Program-made: the position numbers and the translations under genes
The notes under the pieces: model-generated
Seen by the model: the letters and a program-made list of their open reading frames with translations, nothing else
Database searches by the model: none
What the model was told of the DNA's origin: nothing
Shown here: positions 15,762 through 61,118 of the stretch, piece by piece
Layout: the number at the start of each line of letters is the position of its first letter
Numbering within the stretch: position 1 is the first letter of the stretch
IMG/VR virus record: IMGVR_UViG_3300045988_147856
Length of the DNA: 64,000 bases
DNA from: a virus
Direction: 5' to 3' (one strand)

Positions 15762-15762
15762 A

Positions 15763-16507: not shown

Positions 16508-16549
16508 AGAGGACGGTGACTCCGAGTAGTTTATTAAGGAGATGTTTAA

Positions 16550-16750
16550 GTGACAAAAGAATTTAATGAGTGTGTCGGGTGTCCGCCTGAACTTGGGTGT
16601 ATCGGTGACTCGTGTCCACATAGGCGTGTTACTCGATACTTCTGCGACAAGTGCGGTGAAGAGGAGAGACTTTATTATGTGGATGGCGACGAGCTGTGTG
16701 CAGAGTGTGTGCTGGAAGCTTTAGAGATAGTGGAGGGGTCAGATGATTAA
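16550..16750 (+). CDS. Hypothetical zinc-ribbon protein
   Basis: CDKCG...CAEC. Confidence 0.4.
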   Translation: MTKEFNECVGCPPELGCIGDSCPHRRVTRYFCDKCGEEERLYYVDGDELCAECVLEALEIVEGSDD

Positions 16751-18974: not shown

Positions 18975-19315
18975 GAAAGAAAAAGCTAAAACGGGAGCTA
19001 AATTCTCTACGCACCGACCTCGAAGCCGCTAAGAGCAATGCTGATTTTTGGAAGGGATATGCAGAGTTCAGTCAAGAAAAATTAGAAGATAACAAACAAC
19101 TCCGCGAGGAGAACTTAAGACTAAACAGGCTGCTCGCAGAGGTGACAAGTGACCTTAACGCACTTCGCCGAAGTAGTGGATTCGCTCATGCTTACTGCGC
19201 TTACGATGAGTGGTTAGACAAAGAATACTGTGACCGTTGCAGAGAGAACGGATATAACGATTGGAAATGGAGAGGAGTTTTAAAAAATGAAGAGAATCAT
19301 TGGCGAGATATTTGA
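18971..19315 (+). CDS. Hypothetical coiled-coil protein
   Basis: ORF in the operon. Confidence 0.4.
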   Translation: MRKKKLKRELNSLRTDLEAAKSNADFWKGYAEFSQEKLEDNKQLREENLRLNRLLAEVTSDLNALRRSSGFAHAYCAYDEWLDKEYCDRCRENGYNDWKWRGVLKNEENHWRDI

Positions 19316-19715
19316 CTGGATTACAGCAATAGATGAGGCGATAGAAATAACTGCCAAAGATGAGGCTCATAGCGACCACAAGGGTGACGAGCCACAGATA
19401 CATACGTGTCCCGCAGACTGCAAGGGAGCACCCGGTGCCAACTGGCACTCAATAGAAACTGTCGGCGACCTGCCCGAGTACAGTGGCAAATTTATCGTGA
19501 CGATTGAGGAGCTTTTTTATTCAATCAATTGTATACACTCGAGACCCCGCAACGAGAGAGCGACCGTTACAGCGTGGTACGACGCCGACTCGATGACTTG
19601 GGAGATTGACGGCGTGGACGAACCTATAGACGCAGTTGAGGGTGGAAGTGTTGACGGTGTGCTCACCTTTGTGATGGCGTGGCAGATACTTCCTGAGCCT
19701 TACGAGGAGGACTGA
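19287..19715 (+). CDS. Hypothetical protein
   Basis: ORF in the operon. Confidence 0.4.
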   Translation: MKRIIGEIFDWITAIDEAIEITAKDEAHSDHKGDEPQIHTCPADCKGAPGANWHSIETVGDLPEYSGKFIVTIEELFYSINCIHSRPRNERATVTAWYDADSMTWEIDGVDEPIDAVEGGSVDGVLTFVMAWQILPEPYEED

Positions 19716-19719
19716 TGGG

Positions 19720-19932
19720 ATGATTAATATTCTTAGAAATGGAGCAAGCAAAACACTTGAGTTTAAGTGTTCGACCTGCGGGTGCGTTTTCGAAGCAGAC
19801 ATAAATAGCTATGTTCTGACGGGAGAGGAGATTGTTCGTGAGTCATACGATGGGGCGCACAAAGTTGTTGTGTATGCACCTTATACAATGTCAAAATGCC
19901 CGTGCTGCGGACGAGTAGCATACGAGGCTTAA
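19720..19932 (+). CDS. Hypothetical zinc-ribbon protein
   Basis: CSTCG...CPCCG. Confidence 0.4.
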   Translation: MINILRNGASKTLEFKCSTCGCVFEADINSYVLTGEEIVRESYDGAHKVVVYAPYTMSKCPCCGRVAYEA

Positions 19933-19958
19933 CTTATATATACGGAGGTTTACAAAAC

Positions 19959-20162
19959 ATGAAAGTAATACTTTATACGACGCATTGCCCTAAATGCAAT
20001 GTGCTGACGACCAAACTGAAATCGAAGGGAGTGGACTACGAAGAAATTACCGATGTGGATGTTATGAGAGACAAGGGTTTTATGTCAACTCCTATGCTTG
20101 AGGTTGACGGAAAGACAATGACTTTCGTCGAAGCAATTAAATGGGTTAACGAGGTGGTGTGA
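19959..20162 (+). CDS. nrdH: Glutaredoxin-like NrdH redoxin
   Basis: RBS ACGGAGG precedes the ATG at 19959. MKVILYTTHCPKCNVL carries the CxxC motif, and the gene sits directly upstream of nrdD. Confidence 0.7.
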   Translation: MKVILYTTHCPKCNVLTTKLKSKGVDYEEITDVDVMRDKGFMSTPMLEVDGKTMTFVEAIKWVNEVV

Positions 20163-20165
20163 TAT

Positions 20166-22094
20166 ATGAAGTTCAATATAGATAGTCTCGATAGAAGTTT
20201 TGTAATTGAATATAATCGTCTGCAAAATGCTTACCCAGAGAGGCTGAGCGAGCTCAATGGGTTTGGAGATAAACAGCTCAACTATACCGATTTCATCGAC
20301 AATTTTGTTGATAAGCAAACCATAGCAGACGCGAGTATAGATGGTAACGCGAATGTTGCACACAAGGATATTGTTTCGCTCATAAACGAAATGTCGAAGC
20401 CCCATTCAAAACTTTTGGCGTTCAACAAGATATTTCATGAGTTGACTAAGAAGTATGGACACGAGGATGCCACTGAGTGGCTGAAGGGCGAGTGGGACGG
20501 ACACTTTTATCTGCACGACGCTCATAGCTCGTCTTGGGTTCCGTATTGCTTCGCTTATGATATAGACGAACTGGTGAAGCGCGGACTCTATTTCATAGAT
20601 AACTTTAATGCGGCTCCGCCTCAGCACCTCAATACATATACTGATTTTGTCAGCGAATTTGTGTCGTGGACGTGCAATAGGTCTTCAGGCGCGGTTGGGC
20701 TTCCGAGTTTTCTCGTTTATTCGTATTACTTCTGGAAGAAAGATTGCGACGAAGGTTACTTTGTAAAGTCTCCCGAATATTACAGAGACCAGTCTTTTCA
20801 GGAGATAATCTATCGACTTAATCAGCCCTATCTGAGGGGCGGAATCCAGTCGGCTTTTACCAACTTCTCAATATTTGATAAGCCATATCTTGAAGCGCTC
20901 TTCGGCGGTAAAGAGTTCCCCGACGGCACATTCATTATAGATTATATCGACGAGATTAAAGAATATCAGAAGGCGTTTATGAAAGTGCTTTCAGATACAA
21001 GAAGAGAGAACCTTATGACATTTCCGGTTGTTTCGTTCGCTCTTCTTAGACAGAACGGCAAGTTCGTAGATGAGGATTTTGCAAAGTGGTGTTGCCGTCA
21101 TAACATGAAGTGGGCGGATAGTAACATTTTCGTATCAGAGGATGTTACAAGCTTGAGTAACTGCTGTCGTCTGAAAAGCAACATAAAGGAGCTTGGCTAC
21201 TTCAACAGCATCGGCGGGTCGGCGCTTGAGGTTGGATCTATTAAGGTAAATACAATAAACCTCGCCCGTCTTGCCTACGAGACAACATCAGAGGAAGAGT
21301 ATCTTGAAGCTCTTAAGGGTCGAGTAATTACCTGTGCAAAAACTCTTGATGTTATTAGAGATATCATGAAACGAAACACAGAAAAGGGGCTGCTTCCCAA
21401 TTACGCGCTCGGTATTATCAACATGAAGTCGCAGTACAACACCGTTGGTATTATCGGTGTGTATGAAGCGTTGCAGAAGTTTGGCTACACCTATCACGAC
21501 GAGTTCGGTAATACATATTATAAAGACGAGGGCATAGAGTTCGCCAAGAAGATACTCGCGACAATCACCGAGATTAAAGACGAGTTCGTCAAGGATAAGG
21601 ACTACATGATGAACATCGAACAGGTTCCCGGAGAGAGAGCTGCGGCTGTTCTTATGGAAAAAGACAAGCTATTCTTTCCCGATGAGAAATACGACCTTCC
21701 TCTGTACGGCAACCAGTGGATTCCGCTCGGCATAAAGACAACCATAGCTGAAAAGGTTAGAGTGAGTGCTATTCTTGACAAGGCTTGTTCAGGCGGCAGT
21801 ATAGTGCATATTAACATCAGTTCTCCATTCAACAGTTTCGATGAAGCTTGGTATATGATGAATTATGTGGCAGATGCGGGTGTTAACTACTTTGCCTTTA
21901 ATCTTCGTATATCGGCTTGTGACAACAATCATGGATTCTTTGGAGATACTTGTCCCGAGTGTGGACACCCCGTTGAGACGACATATCAGCGTATAGTCGG
22001 TTTCCTTACGCCTACTAAGACCTACTCTGAGGCTCGTAAGAAAGAGTTTGCTATGCGTGACTGGTTTGACCTTAACAATATAGGAGAACTTTAA
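20166..22094 (+). CDS. nrdD: Anaerobic ribonucleoside-triphosphate reductase
   Basis: 642 aa with a C-terminal zinc ribbon (CPECG) followed by the glycyl-radical region RIVGFLTP. Confidence 0.9.
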   Translation: MKFNIDSLDRSFVIEYNRLQNAYPERLSELNGFGDKQLNYTDFIDNFVDKQTIADASIDGNANVAHKDIVSLINEMSKPHSKLLAFNKIFHELTKKYGHEDATEWLKGEWDGHFYLHDAHSSSWVPYCFAYDIDELVKRGLYFIDNFNAAPPQHLNTYTDFVSEFVSWTCNRSSGAVGLPSFLVYSYYFWKKDCDEGYFVKSPEYYRDQSFQEIIYRLNQPYLRGGIQSAFTNFSIFDKPYLEALFGGKEFPDGTFIIDYIDEIKEYQKAFMKVLSDTRRENLMTFPVVSFALLRQNGKFVDEDFAKWCCRHNMKWADSNIFVSEDVTSLSNCCRLKSNIKELGYFNSIGGSALEVGSIKVNTINLARLAYETTSEEEYLEALKGRVITCAKTLDVIRDIMKRNTEKGLLPNYALGIINMKSQYNTVGIIGVYEALQKFGYTYHDEFGNTYYKDEGIEFAKKILATITEIKDEFVKDKDYMMNIEQVPGERAAAVLMEKDKLFFPDEKYDLPLYGNQWIPLGIKTTIAEKVRVSAILDKACSGGSIVHINISSPFNSFDEAWYMMNYVADAGVNYFAFNLRISACDNNHGFFGDTCPECGHPVETTYQRIVGFLTPTKTYSEARKKEFAMRDWFDLNNIGEL

Positions 22095-34930: not shown

Positions 34931-35404
34931 TCAATCGGCGTCCTCAAATTCATCATAGTACATATCCCACACATAATCGTATGGGCGAACCTTTTTCGCA
35001 TCAGCTCGTATGTCGTCGAGTGATAATGGAACACCGTCGCCTTTATCGCCATCCAATCTTTTATGGGCATTTTGCCAAGACGTTTCACGATAAAGCATTT
35101 CACTTAGCTTCCATGACTCCAAAGAGCCATATTCCTGAATAACATTATTGACTACATACTTAGCTGTATCTGAAATACGGGCATTGCCGTCGGTCAACCC
35201 GCAGTTAGACAAAAAGCCTTGAATCTCGCAACGCGCAGCTTCGCACCAAAGATTTTCGCCGAACATGGGGAGACCGGTAATAGCAATGGATTCTCTTTGC
35301 ACAAAATATAAGAGCTTTTGAAGTTTTTCGTCTTCTATGTTGTTGTGCGAAACTCTTTTGTACTCTTTATGAATATACCGAGCTATATCAACAACCTTCT
35401 CCAT
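34931..35404 (-). CDS. Panacea-domain (DUF4065, SocA/GepA-like) antitoxin-type protein
   Basis: IARYIHKEY...EKLQKLLYFVQRESIAITGLPMF...VIQEYGSLESWKLSEMLYRETSWQNA. RBS AAAGGA precedes the ATG at 35404. Confidence 0.6.
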   Translation of the reverse strand: MEKVVDIARYIHKEYKRVSHNNIEDEKLQKLLYFVQRESIAITGLPMFGENLWCEAARCEIQGFLSNCGLTDGNARISDTAKYVVNNVIQEYGSLESWKLSEMLYRETSWQNAHKRLDGDKGDGVPLSLDDIRADAKKVRPYDYVWDMYYDEFEDAD

Positions 35405-35459
35405 TCTATCCGTCCTTTCATCGTCTTTCGACGGCAAAAAATATTTATAAAATATCTAC

Positions 35460-35487
35460 TTGACATTATTTTCGAGCGTGATATAAT
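35460..35487 (+). promoter_or_regulatory. Sigma-A-type promoter
   Basis: TTGACA, 16 nt spacer, TATAAT. Confidence 0.6.
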
Positions 35488-35547
35488 CACCATATAGAAG
35501 ATTATTTTGCTTTATACAAAACATTATACTGCTTAGGAGGAGAATTA

Positions 35548-36438
35548 ATGAAAAGATGTTTATCTGTAATTTTAACTATCGCACTAATATTCATGTTCGC
35601 AGCTTGCACTAACCATAAAAATCAGCAAGAGGGAACAACGACTTCAAGTGACGTTTCTGAAGCTGGCTCACACGAGCAAGTAGGCAGATCAGCAGCCAAT
35701 AAAAACAAAAACGACCAAAAGCCTAATGCTAACAACAACAATAATAACAGTGTTAATGCTAACAACAATAACGCCAACAATGTTAATGCTAATAATACCG
35801 CAGGGCAAAATCCGCCCGCGCAAGGCAAGCCGTCGTCTTCTGGACAGCAGTCAAACTCTTCTAACAGCAAAGAAAAAGATAAGCAATTTAGCGCCGGAAA
35901 TAGCGCTTTTATCGACATAAACCAAGCTTCACAAGCCACAAGCCAGATAGCAAAAGCAATATATCAGGCTTGGTATTTTGCAATATACGAAGCAAAGGAT
36001 TATGGCGATTATTATGAAACTCTTACCCATTATTGCAGAAGAACGGGCTTAGATTCGGTTGAAGTTACAGATGCAGTTGACACCATACTTTCAGACTTGG
36101 GTTATGAACCCGGTAACAACGACGACAGGTATATGATTCTTCAAATAAAAAGCGGAGCAGTCGATGTTGTTATAGGTGTCTATACAGCGAACGGGCGGCT
36201 TGATGAGATAGGCGACCTTTTGGAGTCTGCGCAGAAGAATATCTCAACACTCTCAAAAGAATATGCCGAGTACACCGATAGGGAGACTCTACGCTTGTAC
36301 TACTCCGAAGCTTGGGCGTACTACAATTTCGTTTTGTCTCCCACCGGGTCTTTTTCCACTCTGGAAAATACTATAAACACATACGAAAATAATCTTCGTA
36401 AATACAACAATCAGCTTGCATTTACATATCTTTTCTAA
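35548..36438 (+). CDS. Lipoprotein with an Asn-rich low-complexity linker
   Basis: Signal peptide plus lipobox MFAAC, then the NNNNNNSVNANNNNANNVNANN region. It has its own promoter and runs opposite to the tail operon. Confidence 0.65.
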   Translation: MKRCLSVILTIALIFMFAACTNHKNQQEGTTTSSDVSEAGSHEQVGRSAANKNKNDQKPNANNNNNNSVNANNNNANNVNANNTAGQNPPAQGKPSSSGQQSNSSNSKEKDKQFSAGNSAFIDINQASQATSQIAKAIYQAWYFAIYEAKDYGDYYETLTHYCRRTGLDSVEVTDAVDTILSDLGYEPGNNDDRYMILQIKSGAVDVVIGVYTANGRLDEIGDLLESAQKNISTLSKEYAEYTDRETLRLYYSEAWAYYNFVLSPTGSFSTLENTINTYENNLRKYNNQLAFTYLF

Positions 36439-39400: not shown

Positions 39401-40613
39401 CGTTAACGGCAATACTTGAGAGCTTTGTATGAAGAGCCTCAGCCTTTTGGTCTGCATCGAGAAGCGCAAACTTCATTTTTTCAGCAAACTCAATCGCTTC
39501 AGGATTTTGATATTTTTCGACCTTTGTAACAGATTTTGAAAGAGAGGCTTCAAGATCTGCGATTTCTTTCTCAAGACGTGCTTTCTCCGAAGAGAGTGTC
39601 TCTAAATCATAACCTTGTTTATAGAGGTTGTTGTATTCCTCTTTTGCCTTATTGAGCTGCTTCAGGGTTGCTAAATCTTTATCATAGCTTGACTCGCCAA
39701 AAAGGCTGTATTCAGATTTAAAATAAGTTCGCCGTGCGCTATTTTCATCTTTATAATGGGTATACCAGCCCCACGCCTTTTCGTCGTCTTTGCGCGCCTG
39801 CTCTTCTTCGATTTCTTGCTTTTTCTGATAATACTCAAGCTGAAGTGACAACTCTTGGTTTTGCTTTTTAAGCTCTTCGGTTTCAGCCTTATCCGCCAGC
39901 GACGGATTCTTTATCGCTTCAAGCTCGACGAGGCGATCTTTTACTTTCTTTAACGCCTCTTCCTGATTGTTCAACTCTTCAGTTGTTTCCTTGTATTGAG
40001 TGCGAGACGCTTCAGCTTTTTCATCAAGCTTATCCTGCATATGGATAAGATAGTCAAATCCCTCAATTAGCTTCTGTATCGCAAACTGAGCAACAACAGT
40101 GACAAGCATACCTGCGGCGGCTTTGAAGATATTAAGACCGACGGCGGCGAGTTTTGATTTAATACCCGTAGCCTCTATTTGGGCGGCGGCGTTCTTCTGA
40201 TATTTTACGAAACCATCCCATGTGGGCTCGCCGTCTTTGCAAGTGTCGATATACTCCTGAACGGATTTGCTCATTTTATCATAAACTTCAGGAGCTTGTT
40301 CGAGAGACGCTTTTTTATATTGATTGATGTCGCTCTTGTTTTTCTTTCCAGCATCAGTCTCTAAATCAACAGACTCGCTTATCATTGCAGCAAGTTCTTT
40401 TCGAGTCTCTTTAGCGCTATTTTTTACCTTACTTATCTCTTGACGCACAGCGGAACCCCAAGACGCAGCGTGAGTAATACCACTCTTAAATGTGCCATCC
40501 CAGTTAATACCGGCTGTCAGCTCTTGGTATTTTTTCTTTATATCATCGAGTTGGGCTCCAAAAATAGCTAAATCACCAAATGAAGTACCGCTGCCCTTAG
40601 TAGTGAATATCTT
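36441..40613 (-). CDS. Tape measure protein, C-terminal part (putative exon 2); 5' boundary approximate
   Basis: - The frame is open from about 40613 (KIFTTKGSGTSFGDLAIFGAQ..), upstream of the GTG listed at 40448.
- Long coiled coil.
- Tandem 45-aa repeats and a poly-Ser run.
- C-terminal SH3-like region. Confidence 0.75.
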   Translation of the reverse strand, partial: KIFTTKGSGTSFGDLAIFGAQLDDIKKKYQELTAGINWDGTFKSGITHAASWGSAVRQEISKVKNSAKETRKELAAMISESVDLETDAGKKNKSDINQYKKASLEQAPEVYDKMSKSVQEYIDTCKDGEPTWDGFVKYQKNAAAQIEATGIKSKLAAVGLNIFKAAAGMLVTVVAQFAIQKLIEGFDYLIHMQDKLDEKAEASRTQYKETTEELNNQEEALKKVKDRLVELEAIKNPSLADKAETEELKKQNQELSLQLEYYQKKQEIEEEQARKDDEKAWGWYTHYKDENSARRTYFKSEYSLFGESSYDKDLATLKQLNKAKEEYNNLYKQGYDLETLSSEKARLEKEIADLEASLSKSVTKVEKYQNPEAIEFAEKMKFALLDADQKAEALHTKLSSIAVNDSAVSELERVARYVGDDKSSKSMEDFEKALHKAIPDKEEYDAFVEFAGGIDALAASFGNSTAATDEYAQTVSEMQDLADLSKIFGNWEDASDEAKESINKFLSLTGDEFRSQFEDKFGSLSDEVQDFLSSVFQIDGIDSSQIFEFFGSIGEIAQEFVNESERVSESYSKAADNLSTSFGKSLDGVSGNIDSAKELSTAMTAVKATYDDLTAAMEEQNNTGEISLQTYLSLIEKNSKYAEVLEIDETGAIHLATDARKKMVMTQIQAIQTSIQEEINLKQSQLAMYKFRGTLAVLSQAIFDDAIKPSIKFAAVLNVLKQALAQIKAGKFTTINFSNMFESEVNKMLAQAGKSSSDYNNKYADNVKNLQSEISQLEKYKANVGRIQNVGDFDTYYSGGSSKSKSSSSSSSSSSSSSDPRLKAWNEMLAVKKHQLEMDQITEEQYYAWLEANYKRQLNNQKKYAEEWRKYEEEIYKWKKQKRLDDWNEAVDLKKHELEMGKIDEGEYYTWLAANYKKYLNDKTKYAEEWRENEEAIHKFEEQQAKDSQDALEDLIDLRIDMLKQEKNNEKDVLKERQDNVKDFYDKQRDLLKEHYDQIDKEEERREKRKKVTDIQAELLELEADDSVEAQKRRLELEESLSDAKKDLNDFERDEELDKAEKMYDDLEEMQTQYYEKQIEAIEDYLDNAYELRRQAIEDLQNGNAQLYQEMIEYNRAYGDGIDRSITEKWEAAYEALNRYNSLLDDNYGMKLDNMTGYNKGKYETAAEREARERATQRTSAKDAAQTIAKNAGKSSGSSNTSRKSGPNRGDKVTIKKSATHFSSQSGNAKMASHVPGGKYTVYQVKGNQVLIGVNGAYTGWVWKSDIQGYATGTPHAKGGIANIDEKGLELILGSPDKGRYKFLNDGDKVFNAKASEFLYKWANQPGEVLGSMIKSLSAASSVSIASPCNITVGDVVINGSADEKTVGELRRAHKQIVTDILNEFKKMKK
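37790..38215 (-). repeat. Internal tandem duplication and poly-Ser run within the tape measure
   Basis: WNEMLAVKKHQLEMDQITEEQYYAWLEANYK.. and WNEAVDLKKHELEMGKIDEGEYYTWLAANYK.. repeats, preceded by a run of 12 Ser. Confidence 0.6.
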
Positions 40614-40673
40614 TCATATTATACTGCTTTGGGGATAAGCAAAATAATATTATAACAAAGGGAGTAGATACAA

Positions 40674-41183
40674 ATGGCAAAAGTGTTTTTTTGCCCACAT
40701 TGTGGAAATGATTTAAACCTGTCAAGCAGCTCCGACCTTATACAATATAAAAATGGTGTATGCCAATATTGTGGGTTTGTGGGAAGTTTTTTGGATGTTG
40801 GACTGAACTATGATGAGTTTATCGACCAGCTCGGAGATTATTTGACAAAAATAAATCAGGACGATACCTTTGAAAATATGTGGTACGCCCAAATAAAGAT
40901 GTTCAAAATAGACCAAGATTCGCGCTTCGACAAAGAAGCGTCGCTTAAATCAATGAAGGACAAGGATAAAGAATTACTTGAAGCACACTTGCAGTTTATA
41001 GCCAAAAGAAACGCTGAAAAGCAACGCGAAGCCGCCGCAAAACTCCACTGTCCAACCTGCGGGTCAACTAACATTAAAAAACTCGACGTCGTTGACCGCG
41101 CAGTATCTGTGGGGTTCTTCGGTATCTTTTCTAATAAGATAAACAAGAGCTTTAAGTGCAAGGACTGCGGGTGTACTTGGTAA
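40674..41183 (+). CDS. Double zinc-ribbon protein (cargo gene)
   Basis: CPHCG...CQYCG at the N-terminus and CPTCG...CKDCG at the C-terminus. RBS AAAGGGAG. Confidence 0.5.
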   Translation: MAKVFFCPHCGNDLNLSSSSDLIQYKNGVCQYCGFVGSFLDVGLNYDEFIDQLGDYLTKINQDDTFENMWYAQIKMFKIDQDSRFDKEASLKSMKDKDKELLEAHLQFIAKRNAEKQREAAAKLHCPTCGSTNIKKLDVVDRAVSVGFFGIFSNKINKSFKCKDCGCTW

Positions 41184-41210
41184 TTAGCATTTGATGGCAA
41201 AAACTATAAT

Positions 41211-41265
41211 AGCCGCCAGCAATATTGACGAACTAATTAATGATACTGGCGGCTATATTTTTTTT
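41211..41265. terminator. Bidirectional terminator between the zinc-ribbon gene and toxN
   Basis: AGCCGCCAG...CTGGCGGCT followed by a T8 run. Confidence 0.6.
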
Positions 41266-41267
41266 AA

Positions 41268-41807
41268 TTATGTGTTTGAGTTATATTCACGGGATTTGCT
41301 TTCAAGAAATTTGAAATCGACGCACCGACACGAAACTTTATCATTCGGGTAATTAAGCTTTAATTGATAAAGCCGAAAAGCCTTTTTCTCAATACCTAAT
41401 TCGTTAATCTTAGATATCTCTTTCTTCAATAAGTCTATGTATTTTCCTTTTTCGGCAGAGGATGGAAATGTCCGATACTGGTCGATATCGCCATAATCTA
41501 AAGTTTTAAGCATCGTTTTTGGCAAAGGGAACATATAGTTTAAGTTAACAACAGCAATCAACCGATCCGGAGCTCCTGAAGAGCCGCCCGGGAGGTAAAT
41601 TTTTTGAAAATCTAAGGCGTCGCGCATACTATGATGACGAGACTTGGGGTGAGATACCTGTGTAACATACACCAGCTCATCCATCTCAAAGAGAGTACCA
41701 AAGAACGGCTTAAATTTAGTCTCGCCATAATCTGAGTGTGGGATTCTGGGCTCAAATCCTCGAAGGTAGTTCAAATAATCCTCGCTAATAATTACCCAAT
41801 TTTGCAT
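41268..41807 (-). CDS. toxN: Type III toxin, AbiQ/ToxN-family endoribonuclease
   Basis: 179 aa. YLNYLRGFEPRIP...FFGTLFEMDELVYVTQVSHPKSRHH...NLNYMFPLP...CVDFKFLESKSREY parallels AbiQ/ToxN along the full length. The RNA repeats lie upstream. Confidence 0.8.
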   Translation of the reverse strand: MQNWVIISEDYLNYLRGFEPRIPHSDYGETKFKPFFGTLFEMDELVYVTQVSHPKSRHHSMRDALDFQKIYLPGGSSGAPDRLIAVVNLNYMFPLPKTMLKTLDYGDIDQYRTFPSSAEKGKYIDLLKKEISKINELGIEKKAFRLYQLKLNYPNDKVSCRCVDFKFLESKSREYNSNT

Positions 41808-41847
41808 TTTCGCTCCTATAAAAAATGGTCACATTTTAAATGCGACC

Positions 41848-41920
41848 ATTAATACGATTTTGGTAGGATTCGTAACCTCTATTAATACGATTTTGGTAGG
41901 ATTCGTAACCTCTATTAATA
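41848..41920 (-). ncRNA. toxI: Type III antitoxin RNA (ToxI/antiQ-like), 2.2 tandem 33-nt repeats
   Basis: - Identical units at 41848-41880 and 41881-41913, plus a 7-nt partial third unit.
- RNA unit: AGAGGUUACGAAUCCUACCAAAAUCGUAUUAAU.
- Hairpin ATGGTC..GACCAT (41825-41846) separates the repeats from the toxin RBS. Confidence 0.75.
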
Positions 41921-41948
41921 GTATACATAAAAGGATCGAAAATGTCAA
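41920..41948 (-). promoter_or_regulatory. Promoter of the toxI-toxN unit
   Basis: TTGACA, 17 nt spacer, TATACT on the minus strand, ending right at the first repeat. Confidence 0.6.
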
Positions 41949-41985
41949 CTCAAAAAAATAATAAATTTTAGCCAGTCGCGTCCTC

Positions 41986-42183
41986 TTATTTCCCTTGATT
42001 ATTATTGTCTCTTTCACAAAAGGATAAGCCACGCAGATTTGCTGTAGAAATAAGACTTCCTGAATTAGAAACATTAGCTCTAACCTTGGCGTTTGCCGAT
42101 TCTATAAGATTTTTGTCCCTGTTACGAACAGGTGTAGAACGTTTTAAAACACCACCCATAAGCCTTTTCAACCTTTCAAACAA
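41986..42183 (-). CDS. Small basic 65-aa protein (cargo gene)
   Basis: Promoter TTGGCT-17-TATAAT, then RBS GGTGGAG and a TTG start. Confidence 0.4.
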   Translation of the reverse strand: MFERLKRLMGGVLKRSTPVRNRDKNLIESANAKVRANVSNSGSLISTANLRGLSFCERDNNNQGK

Positions 42184-42309
42184 TTTTCTCCACCTCTATT
42201 ATATAATGAAACAATGCAACAGCCAAGAATAATCGCGCCTTATACGAAATATTGTTCTCAATCTTTTATTAATCGTAGTCACATTAAACTCCTCTTTTTC
42301 CAAATAATT

Positions 42310-42588
42310 TTAGCCTACAACGACCGCCGCAAACCAGCTAATTATTATGTCTATAAGAAATATTGCCTTTGCGCTGATTCGCACTCGGTTGCTCTTCCCG
42401 AGAGGATATCTTATTATCTCTACAAGAAGAGAGCCGCCGAATACAGCAAAGACTATTATGGAGTATATTCCCATAGGTGTAGTACCGGCAATCTTCACTG
42501 TTGCGGCTATTAAGAAGACCACCACCAGCACCACTAATATTGATGCGGCGAAGGATAGGTATATCTTATCGTAGTGAGAAGGGGTCAT
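42310..42588 (-). CDS. Three-TM small membrane protein (cargo gene)
   Basis: 92 aa with three hydrophobic helices; RBS AAAGGA. Confidence 0.5.
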   Translation of the reverse strand: MTPSHYDKIYLSFAASILVVLVVVFLIAATVKIAGTTPMGIYSIIVFAVFGGSLLVEIIRYPLGKSNRVRISAKAIFLIDIIISWFAAVVVG

Positions 42589-42616
42589 TTCTTACATTCC
42601 TTTCGTTCTAAATAGC

Positions 42617-42651
42617 AAAACAGTGCCCTACAAAAAATAGGGCACTGTTTT
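42617..42651. terminator. Bidirectional intrinsic terminator
   Basis: AAAACAGTGCCCTA...TAGGGCACTGTTTT. Confidence 0.7.
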
Positions 42652-42664
42652 ATTATGCCTTTTA

Positions 42665-42693
42665 TTGACTTTTGCTTTTGATAATAATATAAT
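42665..42693 (+). promoter_or_regulatory. Sigma-A-type promoter
   Basis: TTGACT, 17 nt spacer, TATAAT. Confidence 0.6.
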
Positions 42694-42760
42694 AGATGAT
42701 AGTGGATCCACCGTTGTAATTGTTTAACGGTTTCACGGTTAAAAAGACGGTTGCTGATAT

Positions 42761-42813
42761 CCCGCGAGGAGCGGAGTGCAGCAAGCATACCACCTCGTGG
42801 GGAGATCTTTTTT
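42761..42813 (+). promoter_or_regulatory. Terminator/attenuator-like hairpin in the leader, just before the small ORF's RBS
   Basis: CCCGCGAGG...CCTCGTGGG followed by AGATCTTTTTT. Confidence 0.45.
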
Positions 42814-42826
42814 CTCAAGGAAGGTG

Positions 42827-42931
42827 ATGTGTATAACTTTACTCTTTAATGTGATAGGGGCAGTGGCTTCTATTACAACAATAATTATGTTTGTGATATA
42901 CGTATACGAACATCATATAGAGAAAAAGTAA
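42827..42931 (+). CDS. 34-aa hydrophobic peptide, type I toxin-like
   Basis: RBS AAGGAAGG. MCITLLFNVIGAVASITTIIMFVIYVYEHHIEKK has one TM helix and a charged tail. Confidence 0.5.
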   Translation: MCITLLFNVIGAVASITTIIMFVIYVYEHHIEKK

Positions 42932-43057
42932 GCCGTCTATAGCGAGTAGACGACTTACTAATTCGAGAATGTAAATTCTCACTTATAAAGTTGATACTAC
43001 AGCAACCGTCTGGATGTACTACTGGGGAGATGTTTGTTCACAGCAAACGTCTCCTTA
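42921..43057 (-). ncRNA. Predicted convergent antisense sRNA overlapping the 3' end of the small-peptide gene (type I antitoxin-like)
   Basis: The minus-strand promoter at 43064-43092 points into the region. A minus-strand terminator (stem arms 42958-42947 and 42939-42928, then UUUUU) overlaps the ORF stop codon. Confidence 0.4.
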
Positions 43058-43063
43058 GTTATT

Positions 43064-43092
43064 ATTATATCGATGTCTTCAAATTAAGTCAA
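43064..43092 (-). promoter_or_regulatory. Sigma-A-type promoter for the antisense RNA
   Basis: TTGACT, 17 nt spacer, TATAAT on the minus strand. Confidence 0.55.
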
Positions 43093-43161
43093 TAAGTTTA
43101 AAAAATTTTACATTTTTTGAAACAATATCTAAAAATTTTGAAGATGCACTTATCTTTTTTG

Positions 43162-44202
43162 TTAATCTTTATCTTTGTCTATCTTATGAACCACCACGGG
43201 ACTTTCGTCGTCGTCAACACCAACGGCAATAGGTGATATCCATTTTAATATAAGCTTGCGAGTAGATGGTTCTTTCATAGAACCAGTCCAGAAATTATGC
43301 CAATGCCCGCGTCTGATATGAGGGCGGGGAGAAGCATGGGTTCCGGTGGACACCGAAGACTGTTTATACTGCACTCGCTTGTATTGCCTAAAAGACGCAC
43401 CAACACGAACTCCGACATCCCACTTGCGAATCTCGCTATACTTATCCTTGATGCGGCTTGGCGATCTACGGGTTATTGTTTTCTGCTCAGGATTCTCTTC
43501 TATATCAGCATTTGACGCGCAGATATAAAGGACAACCTGTAACATCTTGCTCATAAACGAGACAAGAGTATCGGCAATATCCATATCCAACATAAACTTT
43601 TGAGCCTTGTCGTATTGCCCCGACTCGTAAAGATATTTATATCCCTCTTGACGAGTATATTCAAGATTGTCATAAAGGTTCTCTTGATTAAGATGTATCG
43701 GAAACGCATACGGCATATTGTTCTTATTTAGACACAAGAAGCGTAGCTCTCTGTCCTGTGTGTCCGTATCATACTCCATATGCACAAAGGCTCCAATGAC
43801 CTTATCGTCGCCAAAGTAAAGATTATTGAACTGTATATAGAAACATTGATAGGGGAGGTGCGACAAAACTTCGCTCGGTATATCGAGACAATCTTCTTGT
43901 GCGAATAGCACCTCTTCCATCTCGGGGTCAAGGACAAATACTTCTTTGCTGAGTCTCCACGGCGCGAGAGCGGCGAGTGTAGCCCCAATACGCACCACGT
44001 CCGACTCGTTCTTAAAGTCAGTCTCGCTCTCCACAACAGCCTTTGCCGCCGCTATAGGCACATAGCAATCACTATCCCAACGCGGCAGACCGCCTTGTCC
44101 GTTATGTGAATGAATATCGGACAGCAAGTCCCACGCTTTAGGACATAACCCAGTTGCTTGCTTTAACAAGTCTAACGGCGGGTAGTCTTTGACCTTTCCC
44201 AT
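43162..44202 (-). CDS. Orphan 346-aa protein adjacent to the intron core; no recognised nuclease or RT motif
   Basis: Own promoter and RBS AGAGGTG. The basic C-terminus reads SPRPHIRRGHWHNFWTGS. Confidence 0.55.
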   Translation of the reverse strand: MGKVKDYPPLDLLKQATGLCPKAWDLLSDIHSHNGQGGLPRWDSDCYVPIAAAKAVVESETDFKNESDVVRIGATLAALAPWRLSKEVFVLDPEMEEVLFAQEDCLDIPSEVLSHLPYQCFYIQFNNLYFGDDKVIGAFVHMEYDTDTQDRELRFLCLNKNNMPYAFPIHLNQENLYDNLEYTRQEGYKYLYESGQYDKAQKFMLDMDIADTLVSFMSKMLQVVLYICASNADIEENPEQKTITRRSPSRIKDKYSEIRKWDVGVRVGASFRQYKRVQYKQSSVSTGTHASPRPHIRRGHWHNFWTGSMKEPSTRKLILKWISPIAVGVDDDESPVVVHKIDKDKD

Positions 44203-44233
44203 TAATTACACCTCTGCTATATTTCTTAGATAT

Positions 44234-44261
44234 ATTATAGCAGAAGCCAAGAAATTTTCAA
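44234..44261 (-). promoter_or_regulatory. Sigma-A-type promoter for the 346-aa gene
   Basis: TTGAAA, 16 nt spacer, TATAAT on the minus strand. Confidence 0.6.
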
Positions 44262-44275
44262 TCATTTTTGCGCCC

Positions 44276-44600
44276 ATCCCCAACGGCAGCGCGTACCGAC
44301 CTACTGCGAACAACGAACAGGTTATCCGTTGATAATATAAGGGATTGTTCGCTCATCCCCGGAGTCGAGCACACCATATTGATCCGTAGACCAACCGACC
44401 ATTGTGCTCTGTGAACATTCTCGTTGCTTTTACAACGAGCTTTGCTGCGGACTTTCCTATCTCAGCCTTATTACCGTACCGACTCGCTTTCACGGTCGCC
44501 GCCATAATATTACTACTATGGGTTGGTAGCCTTGCATACGGATTACCCCGTGCCACATTATCAAGCAGCAATGCGCTTCTTACACGCACCAGTATCAGTC
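44276..44600 (-). ncRNA. Group I intron catalytic core (P, Q, R, S elements; P6, P8 and P9-like hairpins)
   Basis: - P-like: UAUGGCGGCGACCGUGAAAG (44506-44487).
- Q-like: GUCCGCAGC (44452-44444).
- P6 hairpin (44439-44420).
- R-like: GUUCACAGAGCACA (44416-44403).
- P8: UUGGUC-UACG-GAUCAA (44394-44379).
- S-like: UAUGGUGUGCUCG (44378-44366).
- GAGCAC pairs with GUGCUC to form P7. Confidence 0.65.
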
Positions 44601-46252
44601 GTTTTTCTTAACACTCTCTTGTCATTGTCGAGCAATGACTCGTTCAGCGTCACCGCCAGAGCGTTTCGTGGGTATATTCCTCCGATAATTGATAAGCCCA
44701 CGTTTTTGATAGATGTAACAACGCCGACTATTGCAGGAAGCAACAGTTTGCACTTGGCGAGTGCATCCGCAAATTGGAGTGCGCCGTTTGTCAACTTTAC
44801 AAAAGTAACAACGGCATTACTGTTAAGAAGATTTGTAGACAAAGACTCAAAAGAAGCCCTTGCTCTTGCGATATTTGCCTCAATACCCTGTGAGTAAGCA
44901 TCGTACTTCTCCATAGCCGTTCCGGCGGAATCAGCACTTATACCCGCATACTCCATAGCCTTACCATAGTTCTCCATGAGGGTAAGGACGTTTTCTTTCT
45001 GTCTTGTAACACCAAGCGCGGTCGCAATGGCACTCTGCTCGACCTCAGTCAAAGACGACCACTTAGCCTGTACGTCATCAAGGACATCTGTGAAGTCTCT
45101 GAATTCACCTAAGTTATCACGAAGACGTATGCCAACTCTTGTCAATATGCGCTCGTAATCGTTTAGCGACTCGCCGTCGTCATCAACAAGCTTATTAAGC
45201 TTAACATTTGAGTAACGAGCGAACATGGTCTTAAACGCATTACCGATAGACGCCATGTCTTGCTGAGTAACTTCGCCAACAGCGGCAAGGTAGCCCAGAA
45301 GCGTGTCCATTTCAACACCGGCAAGACGCGCCGAGTTTGCAGTCTTACTCATACCTTCAGCAAGACCACCAACGCTGACGGCGGCAGCCATATCGACAGC
45401 AGACAGCTTATCTGCTATAGACATCGCGTCATTGATCTCAACCTTATAGCCCTTAATCGCCGAGGTAAGATACTGAGTCGCCTCCGCCGAATCAATCAGA
45501 CCTATCTTGGAAAGAACGGTACTGGTTTTTATCAGTTCGTTTGTGTCTTCAAGAGAATAACCCTGTCTAAGCCAATCGTCGGCGGCGGCGGCTACTTCAG
45601 AAGTGACAGCACCAAGCTCCTGAGCCATTTCAGAATAACTCGCCACGAGCTCTTTAGTGCGATCACGGTTGTAACCTGTAACCATAGAAAGGTTGACAAC
45701 AGCCGAGTCAAGCTTGACAACATTATCGTAGACCTCTTTAAGCTGTTGCACCGAAAAACCAGCTATAGCTGTTACTGCCTTTTGCTTAATATTTGTCTTT
45801 AATGCACTGCCAAGCTTATCAAAGACATTTGTTGTTTCGACGCCAGCCTTAATGGCATCGAGCTTTAAATCGTTGAATGTCTCCTGAAACTCTTTTGCGG
45901 TTATATTTCCGCTGTCCAAGGCGCTTTGGAGCCCCTTGAAACCACCCATAAGACCAGATTTTTCAAGCTTATCGCCATATTTGTCCATGTACTTGTAGAG
46001 TTGGTTATAAGCTCGTAAAAACTTGCCGGAGTCTTGGGTTATTGACTTGGTGATTTTCTTATTAGTGGACTGAACCTCTTTCTCTATACTATCTGTATCA
46101 AGTGAGAACTTGAGTTTCGTAACTCCGCTTTTATTAATCTCTTTGGCTATACTCTGGATGTCTTGCAGTATCTGTCGTCCGGATTCGCCGCTTATTTTGC
46201 CGCCACCAGATACGCCAAATTTTAACTCAATTACGTTTTTGTTATCGGACAT
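44561..46252 (-). CDS. Tape measure protein, N-terminal part (putative exon 1 plus read-through into the intron)
   Basis: TP901-type TMP core pattern (MAQELGAVTSEVAAAADDWLRQGYSLEDT) and a hydrophobic segment LLLPAIVGVVTSI. The last roughly 15-40 codons are probably intron sequence. Confidence 0.8.
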   Translation of the reverse strand: MSDNKNVIELKFGVSGGGKISGESGRQILQDIQSIAKEINKSGVTKLKFSLDTDSIEKEVQSTNKKITKSITQDSGKFLRAYNQLYKYMDKYGDKLEKSGLMGGFKGLQSALDSGNITAKEFQETFNDLKLDAIKAGVETTNVFDKLGSALKTNIKQKAVTAIAGFSVQQLKEVYDNVVKLDSAVVNLSMVTGYNRDRTKELVASYSEMAQELGAVTSEVAAAADDWLRQGYSLEDTNELIKTSTVLSKIGLIDSAEATQYLTSAIKGYKVEINDAMSIADKLSAVDMAAAVSVGGLAEGMSKTANSARLAGVEMDTLLGYLAAVGEVTQQDMASIGNAFKTMFARYSNVKLNKLVDDDGESLNDYERILTRVGIRLRDNLGEFRDFTDVLDDVQAKWSSLTEVEQSAIATALGVTRQKENVLTLMENYGKAMEYAGISADSAGTAMEKYDAYSQGIEANIARARASFESLSTNLLNSNAVVTFVKLTNGALQFADALAKCKLLLPAIVGVVTSIKNVGLSIIGGIYPRNALAVTLNESLLDNDKRVLRKTTDTGACKKRIAA

Positions 46253-60470: not shown

Positions 60471-60544
60471 TGGCGGCGCTTGCAGGATTTGAACCTACAC
60501 TATCAGAGCCAAAATCTGATGTGCTGCCCTTACACCAAAGCGCT
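60471..60544 (-). tRNA. tRNA-Gln (UUG)
   Basis: - Hand-folded cloverleaf.
- Anticodon stem UCAGA/UCUGA with loop UUUUGGC.
- T-loop GGUUCAAAUCC.
- Encoded CCA.
- Positions 1:72 are an A-C mismatch. Confidence 0.75.
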
Positions 60545-60858
60545 GTATTGCAGGACTCGGGCGGATATCGCTTGCATAATACCCGCCCAAAGTTCTGCTT
60601 AAGGAGGAATGAAATTTTGAAGCCGCTTGCAAGCAGCCGACAAAATGGAGTTGTCTAATTGAACCGCCCATATGGGCGGTATTTGTAAAACTAAGGAAAC
60701 GTCGTAACGCTTCCTATACAAAGGCGAATGAGCCTTTTGATAACCTAAGTTAAAATCCAAGTCACGTCTTTTCGTCAGCCATCGTTTTACCGTCCGCAAA
60801 CTTGTGCGCCCGATTCGTCCCGGAACGCCCGATACTTAACTTCTCGCGCTTGGATTTT

Positions 60859-60933
60859 TGGAGCATCCTGCGTGACTCGAACACGCAACCCGCTGCTTAC
60901 AAGGCAGCCGCTCTACCATTGAGCCAAGGATGC
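60859..60933 (-). tRNA. tRNA-Thr (UGU)
   Basis: - Canonical 75-nt cloverleaf.
- Acceptor GCAUCCU/AGGAUGC.
- Anticodon loop CUUGUAA.
- T-loop UUCGAGU.
- Encoded CCA. Confidence 0.85.
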
Positions 60934-61042
60934 ATATACTCGGATTTGATATCGCTGGGACACATCATAGAGAGGTGCGGATAGTCTGACGTACCGAGCT
61001 TGTGGCGCAACCCCACACGTCCCCGCTGTACACACGGGATAT

Positions 61043-61118
61043 TGGTTGCGGAGGCGGGACTTGAACCCACGACCTTTAGGGCATGAACCTAATGAGCTAC
61101 CAACTGCTCCACTCCGCT
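61043..61118 (-). tRNA. tRNA with a CAU anticodon (Met; Ile2 or initiator not excluded)
   Basis: - D arm GAGC AGUUGGUA GCUC.
- Anticodon loop UUCAUGC.
- T-loop UUCAAGU.
- Encoded CCA.
- Positions 1:72 are an A-A mismatch. Confidence 0.75.

Follow-up and report, generated by a model that had tools for sequence, protein, structure and literature searches.

How can a tape-measure protein (TMP) be produced from a gene whose two halves lie several kilobases apart? The window, by which we mean the whole stretch of 64,000 nucleotides of viral DNA analyzed here, contains an open reading frame (ORF) of 563 amino acids on the minus strand (46252-44561) with a PF10145 match, which corresponds to the N-terminal half of the TMP. 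A TMP frame re-opens at about 40613, upstream of a GTG codon at 40448, and no ATG, GTG, or TTG codon was found between these positions, which cover the first 54 codons of the second half. Both observations agree with a preliminary description of the locus, which had interpreted it as a gene split by a group I intron with cargo. That reading is supported by the colinearity of the TMP halves, by an in-frame junction with P1, P10, and a terminal G, and by covariation in P2 to P9. Judging from these sequence features, we consider it fairly probable that the TMP is encoded by one gene split by a self-splicing intron of group I type, as follows.

46252-44696 (-): TMP exon 1, 519 codons, last residues S-I-K-N-V-G (GGC at 44698-44696)
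44695-40611 (-): whole intron, 4085 nt, bounded according to P1/P10, the terminal G, and the joining of KNVG to IFTT in frame
44695-44561 (-): intron read in frame past exon 1, 44 codons (LSIIGG...KKRIAA), then UGA at 44563-44561
40610-36441 (-): TMP exon 2, 1389 codons plus stop, beginning AUA UUC (I-F-T-T-K-G-S-G)

Both halves matched parts of the same TMP profiles, the tape-measure matches of exon 1 being PF10145 and phrog_4211. Alignment to uninterrupted homologs, a check that had been suggested earlier, showed that they were colinear with single TMPs in other phages, including P0157 for exon 2. Joined in frame, the exons would encode a product of 1908 amino acids, with AAAAACGUGGGC followed directly by AUAUUCACUAC at the predicted RNA junction. 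The first 54 codons of exon 2 showed 43 synonymous and 10 non-synonymous codon differences in comparisons with window-type alleles, a ratio which indicates that translation of exon 2 includes its very first codon, where no start codon is present. The last 100 codons of exon 1 showed 125 synonymous versus 50 non-synonymous differences. The first ORF does end in a short tail, as previously described, although this tail is not unrelated sequence but the 44 in-frame intron codons. Here, 17 synonymous versus 30 non-synonymous differences were counted, which indicates that the tail is without protein-level constraint; the changes were compensatory in RNA stems, and the UGA stop was placed in a hairpin loop. 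In P0121, a 66% identical protein, the tail was near-identical, with a few substitutions and a 1-residue deletion.

The splice sites, which had been left unfixed, can now be placed at 44696/44695 and 40611/40610 from the following predicted elements.

44702-44667 (-): P1 hairpin and internal guide sequence, an invariant helix in 21 copies
44702-44697 (-): P1 exon strand CGUGGG
44696 (-): P1 splice-site C, facing A44673
44695-44680 (-): variable P1 loop, different in L019
44679-44674 (-): P10 guide GAAUAU, complementary to AUAUUC of exon 2
44672-44667 (-): P1 3' strand CCCACG

In P1, the guide sequence (44679-44667) is paired to the last bases of exon 1, and in P10, at 6/6 positions, to the first bases of exon 2. 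The 5' splice site after C44696 was placed by P1/P10 and the reading frame, and G40611, directly before exon 2, is the terminal G. The splice-site pair is C·A, as opposed to the near-universal U·G; an exon that ends in C is a rare exception but one already known (PMC4227781). The same boundary logic fits L001, L003, and L017, which contain other allele types of the same intron, with GUAUUC in L017 pairing via G·U. L038 and L046, which represent two unrelated lineages of introns found at this site, had the same junction and the same P1, P10, and terminal-G logic: the guide GAAAAC pairs with GUUUUC in L038 and AAUAU pairs with AUAUU in L046, both with U·G as the splice-site pair. Across lineages, the junction was always KNVG followed by I or V and then F or L.

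The conserved RNA begins at 44695, inside the first ORF and upstream of the limit of 44660 given in the preliminary description. The ribozyme domain (44695-44270, about 430 nt) was 97% to 100% identical in 19 relatives, in which the flanking TMP N-half proteins were 94% to 100% identical, and the conserved RNA varied less than its coding flanks. A copy of about 85% identity in L019 was the source of compensatory changes. All RNA motifs listed previously were located exactly where reported, and the structure was as follows.

44664-44270 (-): ribozyme body used for the covariation count
44664-44658 with 44617-44611 (-): P2, with arms at 44657-44646 (GUGA loop) and 44639-44621
44589-44571, 44570-44551, and 44550-44539 (-): hairpins of the ribozyme body, the last with a GUAA loop
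44526-44521 with 44400-44395 (-): P3, the weakest helix, with an A·C mismatch
44502-44499 with 44450-44447 (-): P4
44498-44480 (-): P5, GAAA loop
44439-44420 (-): P6
44409-44404 with 44372-44367 (-): P7, invariant
44394-44379 (-): P8
44360-44340 (-): P9
44352-44346 with 44312-44306 (-): alternative helix
44292-44270 (-): terminal hairpin of the 5' domain

In alignment A3 (21 copies, 96 pairs), which was compared with 500 shuffles and with slid controls, 98.7% of the cells were paired and 15 of the 96 pairs were altered on both sides. The shuffles gave 3.2 +/- 1.0 such pairs, with 0 of 500 reaching the observed number, and the slid controls gave 0 to 3. P4, P6, P7, P8, and the GNRA hairpins, all proposed earlier, are real helices by these counts. 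P1 and P7 showed no variation in this alignment, and P3, with its A·C mismatch, no clean covariation, so that the pseudoknot core is a putative one. It was also noted that the segment from P5 to P4' is atypically long.

The Rfam group I model (RF00028), suggested earlier as a check, gave no match to the window RNA at the thresholds tried, even at E <= 10 in a 461-nt search, nor was any other Rfam family matched, and nhmmer revealed no sequence similarity between the window intron and the other introns discussed here. The L046 intron gave a full-length, sub-threshold RF00028 alignment (19.2 bits, E = 0.014). At another position in the TMP gene, relatives also contain a genuine RF00028 intron that encodes a GIY-YIG endonuclease and, like the window intron, has its core at the 5' end and its ORF in a 3' peripheral stem-loop.

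At the other end of the intron, three elements were identified.

40650-40611 (-): 3' intron end, hairpin at 40650-40616, then GAAAG, with the terminal G at 40611
40636-40630 (-): loop of this hairpin, AUCCCCA, 7 nt
44283-44276 (-): UUGGGGAU, loop segment of the 5' domain's terminal hairpin, proposed to pair with the loop of the 3' hairpin

The folding z-scores of the 3' hairpin ranged from -4.4 to -5.4 in four allele types, among which the stem sequences differ and the structure and loop are kept. UUGGGGAU is complementary to AUCCCCAA at 40636-40629, and the two may form a loop-loop pairing. The loop in L019 keeps GGGGA, and the other GGGGAU, in P9, is altered in this copy. A 12-13 bp pairing had been thought to enclose the cargo. 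A repeat search of the region, which listed 17 inverted-repeat pairs (12-35 nt), did not include it, and a 13-bp stem fails in the other 3' allele types, only GGGGAU/AUCCCC being conserved, in two hairpin loops. As described, the pairing is no more than expected by chance and reduces to a loop-loop match of 6-8 nt; the cargo is flanked by two hairpins capable of a kissing-loop contact, not enclosed in a 13-bp stem.

Both splice sites lie outside the cargo, which fills the 3.6 kb from the catalytic domain to the 3' hairpin.

44261-44234 (-): promoter-like site at the cargo start (TTGAAA, 16 nt, TATAAT, with TG in front)
44202-43162 (-): AcrVA2-family (anti-CRISPR) homolog, 346 aa (PDB 7ci1_A AcrVA2, E = 2.6e-10, residues 64-311; phrog_6160)
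42588-42310 (-): ORF for a 92-aa membrane-like protein, present in several relatives
42183-41986 (-): ORF for a 65-aa basic protein, present in several relatives
41948-41268 (-): type III toxin-antitoxin (PF13958, PADLOC, repeats)
41948-41920 (-): its promoter
41920-41848 (-): its repeat, 2.2 copies of 33 nt, upstream of toxN
41850-41824 (-): its terminator-like hairpin
41807-41268 (-): toxN/abiQ (PF13958, 2.5e-40; PADLOC AbiQ, 3.8e-18)
40674-41183 (+): double zinc-ribbon protein, 169 aa, directly upstream of exon 2 on the opposite strand

Promoter-like and terminator-like sites were seen and genes occur on both strands, in line with the preliminary description, which had also recognized the ToxIN-like system and the double zinc-ribbon protein, both now borne out, the former by the toxN matches and the upstream repeat. 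The protein that it had called an orphan of 346 amino acids is instead the AcrVA2 homolog, which is missing from L001, L002, L004, L008, and L016. Profile searches assigned no family to the 92-aa and 65-aa proteins (41986-42588), and the cargo contains no recognizable homing endonuclease. The C-terminal zinc-ribbon family is positioned identically in the window lineage, L046, and L047; the truncation of the protein in L016 shows that it is not essential. Conservation among relatives stops just upstream of the promoter-like site at 44261-44234, and the cargo varies from about 1 to 5 kb among near-identical phages, the whole intron being 1.5 to 5.6 kb in phages with TMP N-half proteins that are 94% to 100% identical.

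We infer that the intron is spliced and that its internal terminators are read through. A late transcript would span exon 1, the intron, and exon 2, and the first ~430 nt of the intron would fold into the catalytic domain (P1 to P9). The internal guide sequence would hold both the end of exon 1 (P1, with the C·A wobble at the cleavage site) and the first six bases of exon 2 (P10). The covarying hairpin, located 5 nt before the terminal G, would dock the distant 3' end, probably through contact between the loops AUCCCC and GGGGAU. Two transesterifications would then ligate KNVG to IFTT, yielding the TMP of 1908 amino acids, and the 3.6-kb island would consist of freely exchangeable, independently expressed accessory genes. 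This variable set of anti-defense and defense genes within the gene for phage tail length would be tolerated because splicing takes it out of the mRNA, and introns may thus offer accessory genes a safe place to insert within essential genes. A cis transcript would have to pass at least two or three terminator-like hairpins as well as convergent transcription.

Whether splicing occurs in cis or in trans cannot be told from the sequence. In a bipartite ribozyme, exon 1 with the catalytic domain and the hairpin with exon 2 would be transcribed separately and joined by the loop-loop contact and P10, so that the island is never in the precursor. This scheme, which we consider unlikely, would account for the strong promoter-like and terminator-like sites on the TMP strand inside the island, for intron ends linked only by a loop-loop match and no closed stem, and for the divergently oriented gene that abuts the 3' end in several lineages. 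By our reading, an extended -10-like box, TGTTATAAT, is also located just upstream of the 3' hairpin, but it is not kept in other allele types, and a start ~7 nt downstream of it would cut off the covarying outer stem of the hairpin. To our knowledge, there is no natural trans-splicing group I intron in bacteria or phages, which also counts against this scheme. Moreover, cis splicing across ~2 kb of cargo works in IStrons (PMC4227781).

Somewhat less likely still is a decayed intron without splicing, with the TMP made as two polypeptides: the 563-aa N-half with its intron tail, and a C-half from a non-canonical or internal start codon. The 563-aa ORF is indeed found in every relative, L017 has frameshifts in exon 2, an endonuclease is absent, and JGI metagenomes yielded no allele that lacks the intron and shows the predicted junction. 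The L001 type and L038 have an in-frame AUG at most 3 codons from the exon 2 start, but this AUG lies in another frame in the window type and the L003 type and is mutated to ACG in L009, L011, and L018, and the first 54 codons of exon 2 are nevertheless under coding constraint. Decay is also difficult to reconcile with an RNA more conserved than its coding flanks, helices kept through compensatory change, a P10 that follows the exon 2 sequence in three lineages, and a tail under no protein-level constraint.

We regard it as improbable that there is no intron at all, and that a conserved structured non-coding RNA, acting as a regulatory element or recombination hot-spot boundary at the end of the first tail gene, precedes a moron island and another, separate tail gene. 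No Rfam family was matched, and the coincidence of the island bounds with the conserved RNA and the 3' hairpin also fits recombination anchors. However, this leaves unexplained the guide complementarity to both exon ends, the conserved G before exon 2, an in-frame junction whose residue is shared by unrelated lineages, the missing start codon of exon 2, and the conserved RNA that starts inside an ORF. A transposon or integrative element with inverted repeats as its ends is highly improbable, as the short repeats, whether inverted or direct, do not exceed many chance pairs of this region in length, the boundaries (GUGGGC before and AUAUUC after the insert) lack a target-site duplication, the insertion is at the identical site in all relatives, and profile searches found no transposase, integrase, or recombinase, despite a weak zinc-ribbon similarity to IS1595-type transposase ribbons (E = 0.006, below the cut-off). 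L041, the only candidate for an element at an unrelated site, proved to be a deletion derivative.

The predicted spliced intron most closely resembles IStrons (CdISt1, BcISt1; PMC4227781), in which a group I intron is fused to an IS200/IS605 element with a multi-gene cargo of ~1.5-2 kb. Shared features are a ribozyme core at the 5' end, cargo, a short 3' terminal segment, non-canonical last exon bases and, as predicted here, removal of the whole element from the host mRNA by splicing (PMC4227781). Unlike in IStrons, the cargo lacks transposase and TnpB and is a varying collection of anti-defense genes, defense genes, and genes of unknown function, which are encoded on both strands and have promoters and terminators of their own; the element is confined to one homologous phage tail-gene site rather than scattered, the introns are larger (up to 5.6-5.8 kb), and the ribozyme lacks the IA2 hallmarks P7.1 and P7.2. 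Group I introns in TMP genes have been described in Bacillus cereus-group prophages (TMP-IVS1-3) and Lactobacillus phage JCL1032 (PMC2504315). These are likewise of self-splicing type in the TMP gene of Firmicute siphophages, with several insertion sites and different introns fitting one site through P1/P10, but they are compact, belong to the IA1/IA2 types, and encode at most one endonuclease (PMC2504315), whereas the window intron has 3.6 kb of unrelated genes and no RF00028 match.

The site-2 intron of the relatives (L003, 18964-20547) also has the core first, the ORF in a 3' peripheral loop, and few bases from the closing element to the terminal G; it differs in being RF00028-positive (51.6 bits), with a single GIY-YIG/NUMOD3 endonuclease and a loop closed by a perfect 13-bp stem. 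Introns of the T4 nrdD (sunY) type resemble the window intron in having the core first and the ORF near the 3' end. As in phage moron and defense hot spots, the gene content is mosaic among near-identical phages and includes toxin-antitoxin and anti-CRISPR homologs, promoters and terminators are autonomous, and some genes are encoded opposite to the late operon; unlike those hot spots, the island interrupts the coding region of an essential structural gene, and its boundaries are intron parts, not gene ends.

The tape-measure protein (TMP) gene was split into two halves, both encoded on the minus strand. Between them were genes on both strands: a gene for a 346-aa protein, small ORFs, toxN with a 33-nt repeat in 2.2 copies, and a plus-strand gene for a zinc-ribbon protein.

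46252-44561, minus strand, TMP N-half ORF of 563 aa with a TP901-type tape-measure core (PF10145, 3.7e-26)
40613-36441, minus strand, TMP C-half frame, which opens at 40613 and ends at 36441
40674-41183, plus strand, zinc-ribbon protein, adjoining exon 2 on the opposite strand

In a profile search, the N-half matched positions 555-953 of 2625 in phrog_4211, and a weak match of the C-half was located distally in this profile (positions 2106-2489). In the C-half frame, the GTG at 40448 was the first candidate start codon, with no ATG, GTG or TTG upstream of it. Among 1.8 billion representative proteins searched, many of the matches were single TMPs of 1,250-2,780 aa, and many others were N-half-only proteins of 480-850 aa. 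Alignment to an uninterrupted TMP, as proposed in the preliminary description, showed that the two halves were colinear, since the N-half aligned up to about residue 635 of the single TMP P0157 and residues 94-354 of the C-half aligned from its residue 659 on.

The genome was that of a siphovirus of roughly 90 kb with SPbeta-like tail genes, Pol III alpha, NrdD and three tRNAs. The same phage encoded a Pnkp-like kinase-phosphatase-RNA ligase fusion, which suggests RNA repair, and the fusion and the three tRNA genes were located at 4298-6532 and 60474-61118. A second small accessory region was noted between the TMP gene and the gene for the distal tail protein (34931-36438).

34931-35437, minus strand, SocA/Panacea-domain protein
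35548-36438, plus strand, low-complexity lipoprotein-like ORF

We consider it probable that the two halves are joined in cis by excision of a group I-type intron of 4085 nt (44695-40611), with a 5' ribozyme domain, a cargo of about 3.6 kb and a 3' hairpin. The 563-aa ORF was present in all 18 IMG/VR relatives, with N-half proteins 94-100% identical to that of the window. The first 300 nt or so after the stop codon were 98-100% identical among these relatives, which is above the adjacent coding DNA, and the sequence further downstream was mosaic. Conservation of the RNA began within the ORF at AACGUGGGC (about 44704) and ended near 44266. The C-terminal tail of the ORF, previously described as unrelated, was nearly identical in P0121, a protein with 66% identity, and the RNA itself recurred, with about 85% identity, on the contig of P0121 (L019). 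Across the 44 intron codons read in frame, there were 17 synonymous and 30 non-synonymous differences, compared to 125 and 50 in the last 100 codons of exon 1, which argues that the tail is constrained as RNA and not as protein. No intermediates between the two RNA lineages were found in a search for P0121 homologues, metagenome scans gave no matches to L019-type copies, and an nhmmer search with the RNA alignment identified no second copy within the window and no similarity to other introns.

Seventeen helices were drawn, and pairs were counted on an alignment of 21 copies of the RNA. In total, 98.7% of the helix cells were paired, and 15 pairs were changed on both sides, as compared to 3.2 +/- 1.0 in shuffles (none of 500 reached this number) and 0-3 in slid controls. 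The core helices P3 to P9 could be drawn in canonical order, with compensatory double changes in P5, P6, P8 and P9. The P3/P7 pseudoknot lacked clean covariation, since P7, like P1, was invariant in the 21 copies and P3 contained an A·C mismatch. Covariation supported the P6, P8 and GNRA hairpins of the preliminary description; its P4 varied only by a change from C-G to a U·G wobble, and its P7 not at all. It was also noted that P9 (GGGGAU/AUCCCU, 44340-44360) and a helix between the P9 loop and 44312-44306 (within 44306-44352) were mutually exclusive, and that both contained compensatory changes; they could represent a pseudoknot or a conformational switch, perhaps tied to docking of the 3' hairpin.

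The window RNA resembled the consensus of the Rfam group I intron model (RF00028) at P4'/P6, J6/7-P7 and J8/7-P7'. The covariance model search suggested in the preliminary description gave no match to the window RNA at the gathering score or at E <= 10, with 4.6 kb and 461 nt searched, and no Rfam group I match was obtained for the contigs L038, L019 and L040. The intron located at the same site in L046 was aligned over the full length of RF00028 at 19.2 bits (E = 0.014; gathering score 50).

The splice sites were predicted from pairings at the intron ends. In the putative P1 helix, the exon 1 sequence CGUGGG (44702-44697) paired with CCCACG (44672-44667) over 6 bp that were invariant in the 21 copies. 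The 24 nt between the strands opened with a stretch that was wholly different in L019, and the P1 loop was variable. In the putative P10 helix, the guide GAAUAU (44679-44674), located 5' of the P1 strand, was complementary at 6/6 positions to AUAUUC (40610-40605), with which the conserved sequence of exon 2 begins directly after G40611. Taken together, the predicted P1, P10 and terminal G match the layout expected for the internal guide sequence of a group I intron. The cleavage-site pair, C44696·A44673, is a non-standard variant of the usual U·G, which was found at the homologous position in L038 and L046. The C·A pair is a wobble isostere of U·G, and rare exceptions in which the exon ends in C have been reported (PMC4227781).

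Cutting the RNA behind C44696 and joining C44696 to A40610 would yield the in-frame sequence ...S-I-K-N-V-G/I-F-T-T-K-G-S-G, with the predicted spliced-junction sequence AAAAACGUGGGCAUAUUCACUAC and a TMP of 519 + 1389 = 1908 aa. The G before exon 2 was present in the window, in 18 of 18 IMG/VR relatives (in L017 at a divergent GUAUUC start), in L038 and in L046, and the predicted junction was always KNVG/(I/V)(F/L). Scans of metagenomes for the intron-less junction gave no matches. Another candidate splice site, AACGU/GGGC joined to AUG/A, was rejected; it broke the reading frame in the L001 and L017 allele types, lacked a wobble pair and placed P10 in a non-adjacent position.

More distant N-half-only TMPs were traced to the contigs L038 and L046, the RNAs of which had no sequence similarity to the window RNA detectable with nhmmer.

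Predicted splice sites in two other intron lineages at the same TMP site (slashes mark splice sites)
L038: TMP N-half 49% identity; exon 1 end ...AACGUUGGU, U·G; guide GAAAAC-GCCGG; exon 2 start G/GUUUUC; P10 6/6 with GAAAAC; junction KNVG/VFRT; intron 2382 nt
L046: TMP N-half (P0176) 43% identity; exon 1 end ...AACGUCGGU, U·G; guide GAAUAU-GCCCGC; exon 2 start G/AUAUUA; P10 5 bp (5/6); junction KNVG/ILKP; intron 5837 nt with about ten ORFs

As judged from these pairings, the putative logic of P1, P10 and the terminal G is independently replicated in both contigs. Within the lineage of the window, there were four divergent allele types of exon 2 and the intron 3' end (window, L001, L003 and L017), all with a G before (A/G)UAUUC, and the GUAUUC start in L017 paired 6/6 in P10 with one G·U. 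The L017 exon 2 allele (15456-16550; VFSLQEGD...) contained apparent frameshifts further downstream, and may represent a decaying prophage or sequencing errors.

The first 55 codons of exon 2 contained 43 synonymous and 10 non-synonymous codon changes among the window-type alleles. The upstream AUG matched the reading frame solely in L038 and the L001 type; in the window and L003 types it was shifted out of frame (A-UGA), and in L009, L011 and L018 it was replaced by ACG. Exon 2 is predicted to be translated from its first codon, and a coding constraint from its very start despite such an inconsistent AUG would be hard to explain without exon joining.

At the other end of the intron, the 35-37 nt preceding the final 5-6 bases formed a hairpin of 12-15 bp in all four allele types, with folding z-scores of -4.4 to -5.4 (none of 200 shuffles folded as well). 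The hairpins were compared by folds of each type, without a formal count of pairs, since the MAFFT alignment was out of structural register. The stem sequences differed among the types, and AUCCCC was always located in the loop. In the 5' domain, the final hairpin (44292-44270) had the complementary UUGGGGAU in its loop and one compensatory change, in L019, in its stem. A 13-bp duplex previously proposed to enclose the cargo occurred in the window type only, being absent in the L003 type, and was not among the 17 inverted-repeat pairs of 12-35 nt recovered from the region in a repeat search. For this reason, we read the contact between the 5' domain and the 3' hairpin as a putative loop-loop interaction of 6-8 bp. 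The 5' domain contained GGGGAU at two places, and the probability of a chance 6-mer match is roughly 10%. RNAduplex comparisons of the 5' domain with the 3' tails gave large internal loops and no informative pairing.

Among the relatives, L016 had the shortest intron (1517 nt) and L004 the longest (5610 nt), with a constant 5' domain and 3' hairpin, and the cargo is a hot spot of accessory genes. The 346-aa protein, earlier called an orphan, matched AcrVA2 (7ci1_A) over residues 64-311 in a phmmer search against PDB (E = 2.6e-10), and is by homology a putative AcrVA2-family anti-CRISPR protein; it was replaced by other ORFs in five relatives. The ToxIN-like type III toxin-antitoxin system of the preliminary description was borne out by a ToxN-family match (PF13958 at 2.5e-40; PADLOC AbiQ at 3.8e-18), 2.2 exact copies of the 33-nt repeat before toxN (41848-41920), an upstream promoter and, separating the repeats from toxN, a terminator-like hairpin. 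ToxN/AbiQ was found in some relatives only, and one alternative cargo gene weakly resembled PARP/PD-T4-9. The zinc-ribbon protein adjoined exon 2 on the opposite strand in three intron lineages, namely those of the window, L046 (14683-15231) and L047 (11830-12300). The family has a conserved C-terminal motif, CPxCGSTN..K...R...G...S...C..C, and the protein was truncated, and hence dispensable, in L016. No mobility gene was recognisable in the cargo.

The island contained 20 strong promoter-like sites, as compared to 10.6 expected, and 11 terminator-like sites, as compared to 3.6 expected, in agreement with the previous claim that it has promoters and terminators of its own and genes on both strands. 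The terminator-like sites on the minus strand included 42959-42927 and 41850-41824. Instead of cis read-through across such internal terminators, the intron might be transcribed in two separate pieces and trans-spliced, which we regard as unlikely; it would, to our knowledge, be the first natural trans-spliced group I intron in a bacterial virus. Only a few copies of the tape-measure protein are needed per virion, so that small amounts of spliced mRNA might be enough.

Prophages of the B. cereus group and phage JCL1032 have been described with group I introns in their TMP genes; these introns are compact and contain at most one endonuclease gene (PMC2504315). Phage Moonbeam was rejected as a further precedent, since the introns of this phage interrupt its terminase and polymerase genes. 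A multi-gene cargo towards the 3' end of a group I intron has its precedent in the IStron, in which the cargo is an IS element (PMC4227781). IStrons contain an IS200/IS605 transposase and/or TnpB at the 3' end, whereas no cargo ORF matched either family. Furthermore, the IA2-type ribozyme of IStrons has P7.1 and P7.2, whereas the window RNA has no room for either between P7 and P3'. Full-text literature searches yielded no description of a phage intron that contains an accessory or defence island.

If splicing occurs, the intron would carry a whole accessory island within an essential, highly conserved structural gene and give such an island a neutral place to land; until now, a homing endonuclease or an insertion sequence has been the limit of such intron cargo. 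It would represent a new kind of hot spot in phage genome architecture, tie a self-splicing RNA to the arms race between defence and counter-defence, and explain many of the split tape-measure genes of metagenomic phages. It would also offer a natural design for the insertion of payloads into phage genomes without gene disruption. The ribozyme may be useful for better intron detection, since it was missed by the standard model and has a C·A cleavage-site pair.

Searches against INPHARED phages with megablast and tblastn yielded no useful relative. An intron pattern scan of genome contigs gave four matches, one of which (L044) belonged to the same lineage as the window and two of which (L042, L043) were dismissed as chance matches in coding sequence. 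The fourth, L041 (CAVFAN010000001.1, 1-4737), was rejected as a copy of the intron in a portal gene. Here, the portal gene was fused to the intron core at the hairpin with the TMP stop codon, and the core was followed by the cargo, by the zinc-ribbon gene and by the same TMP exon 2. This arrangement resembles a prophage with a deletion or a chimeric assembly.

Some relatives contained a second group I intron in TMP exon 2, which matched RF00028 just above the gathering score of 50 (51.6 bits in L003 and L004, 51.2 bits in L014) and, to judge from the layout, also appeared to be present in L016. It was inserted at the position corresponding to 37256/37255 on the minus strand of the window, the allele of which is intron-less; the L003 copy spanned 18964-20547. 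This intron contained a GIY-YIG/NUMOD3 homing endonuclease gene within a 13-bp stem that ended 5 nt before the terminal G. The flanking codons had diverged between the intron-bearing and the intron-less window alleles (RQYGSG versus RAYGDG), a pattern consistent with co-conversion.

A broader and rather speculative reading is that group I introns at this conserved TMP site form a widespread safe-harbour class in phages of gut Firmicutes, holding kilobases of exchangeable defence and anti-defence genes, with the ribozyme assembled across or without the cargo by a loop-loop contact and with a two-piece, trans-spliced intron as the extreme form. There were 45 representatives shorter than 900 aa among the best 150 TMPs (P0121-P0270), and about 15 of these 45 ended some 6-50 residues past a K-N-x-G-like motif. 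Another group of short TMPs (L040, L047) had the common tail GWPEMTGD..IVPIY..AA, and the two patterns suggest that several families of introns located at this TMP site or close to it lack annotation.
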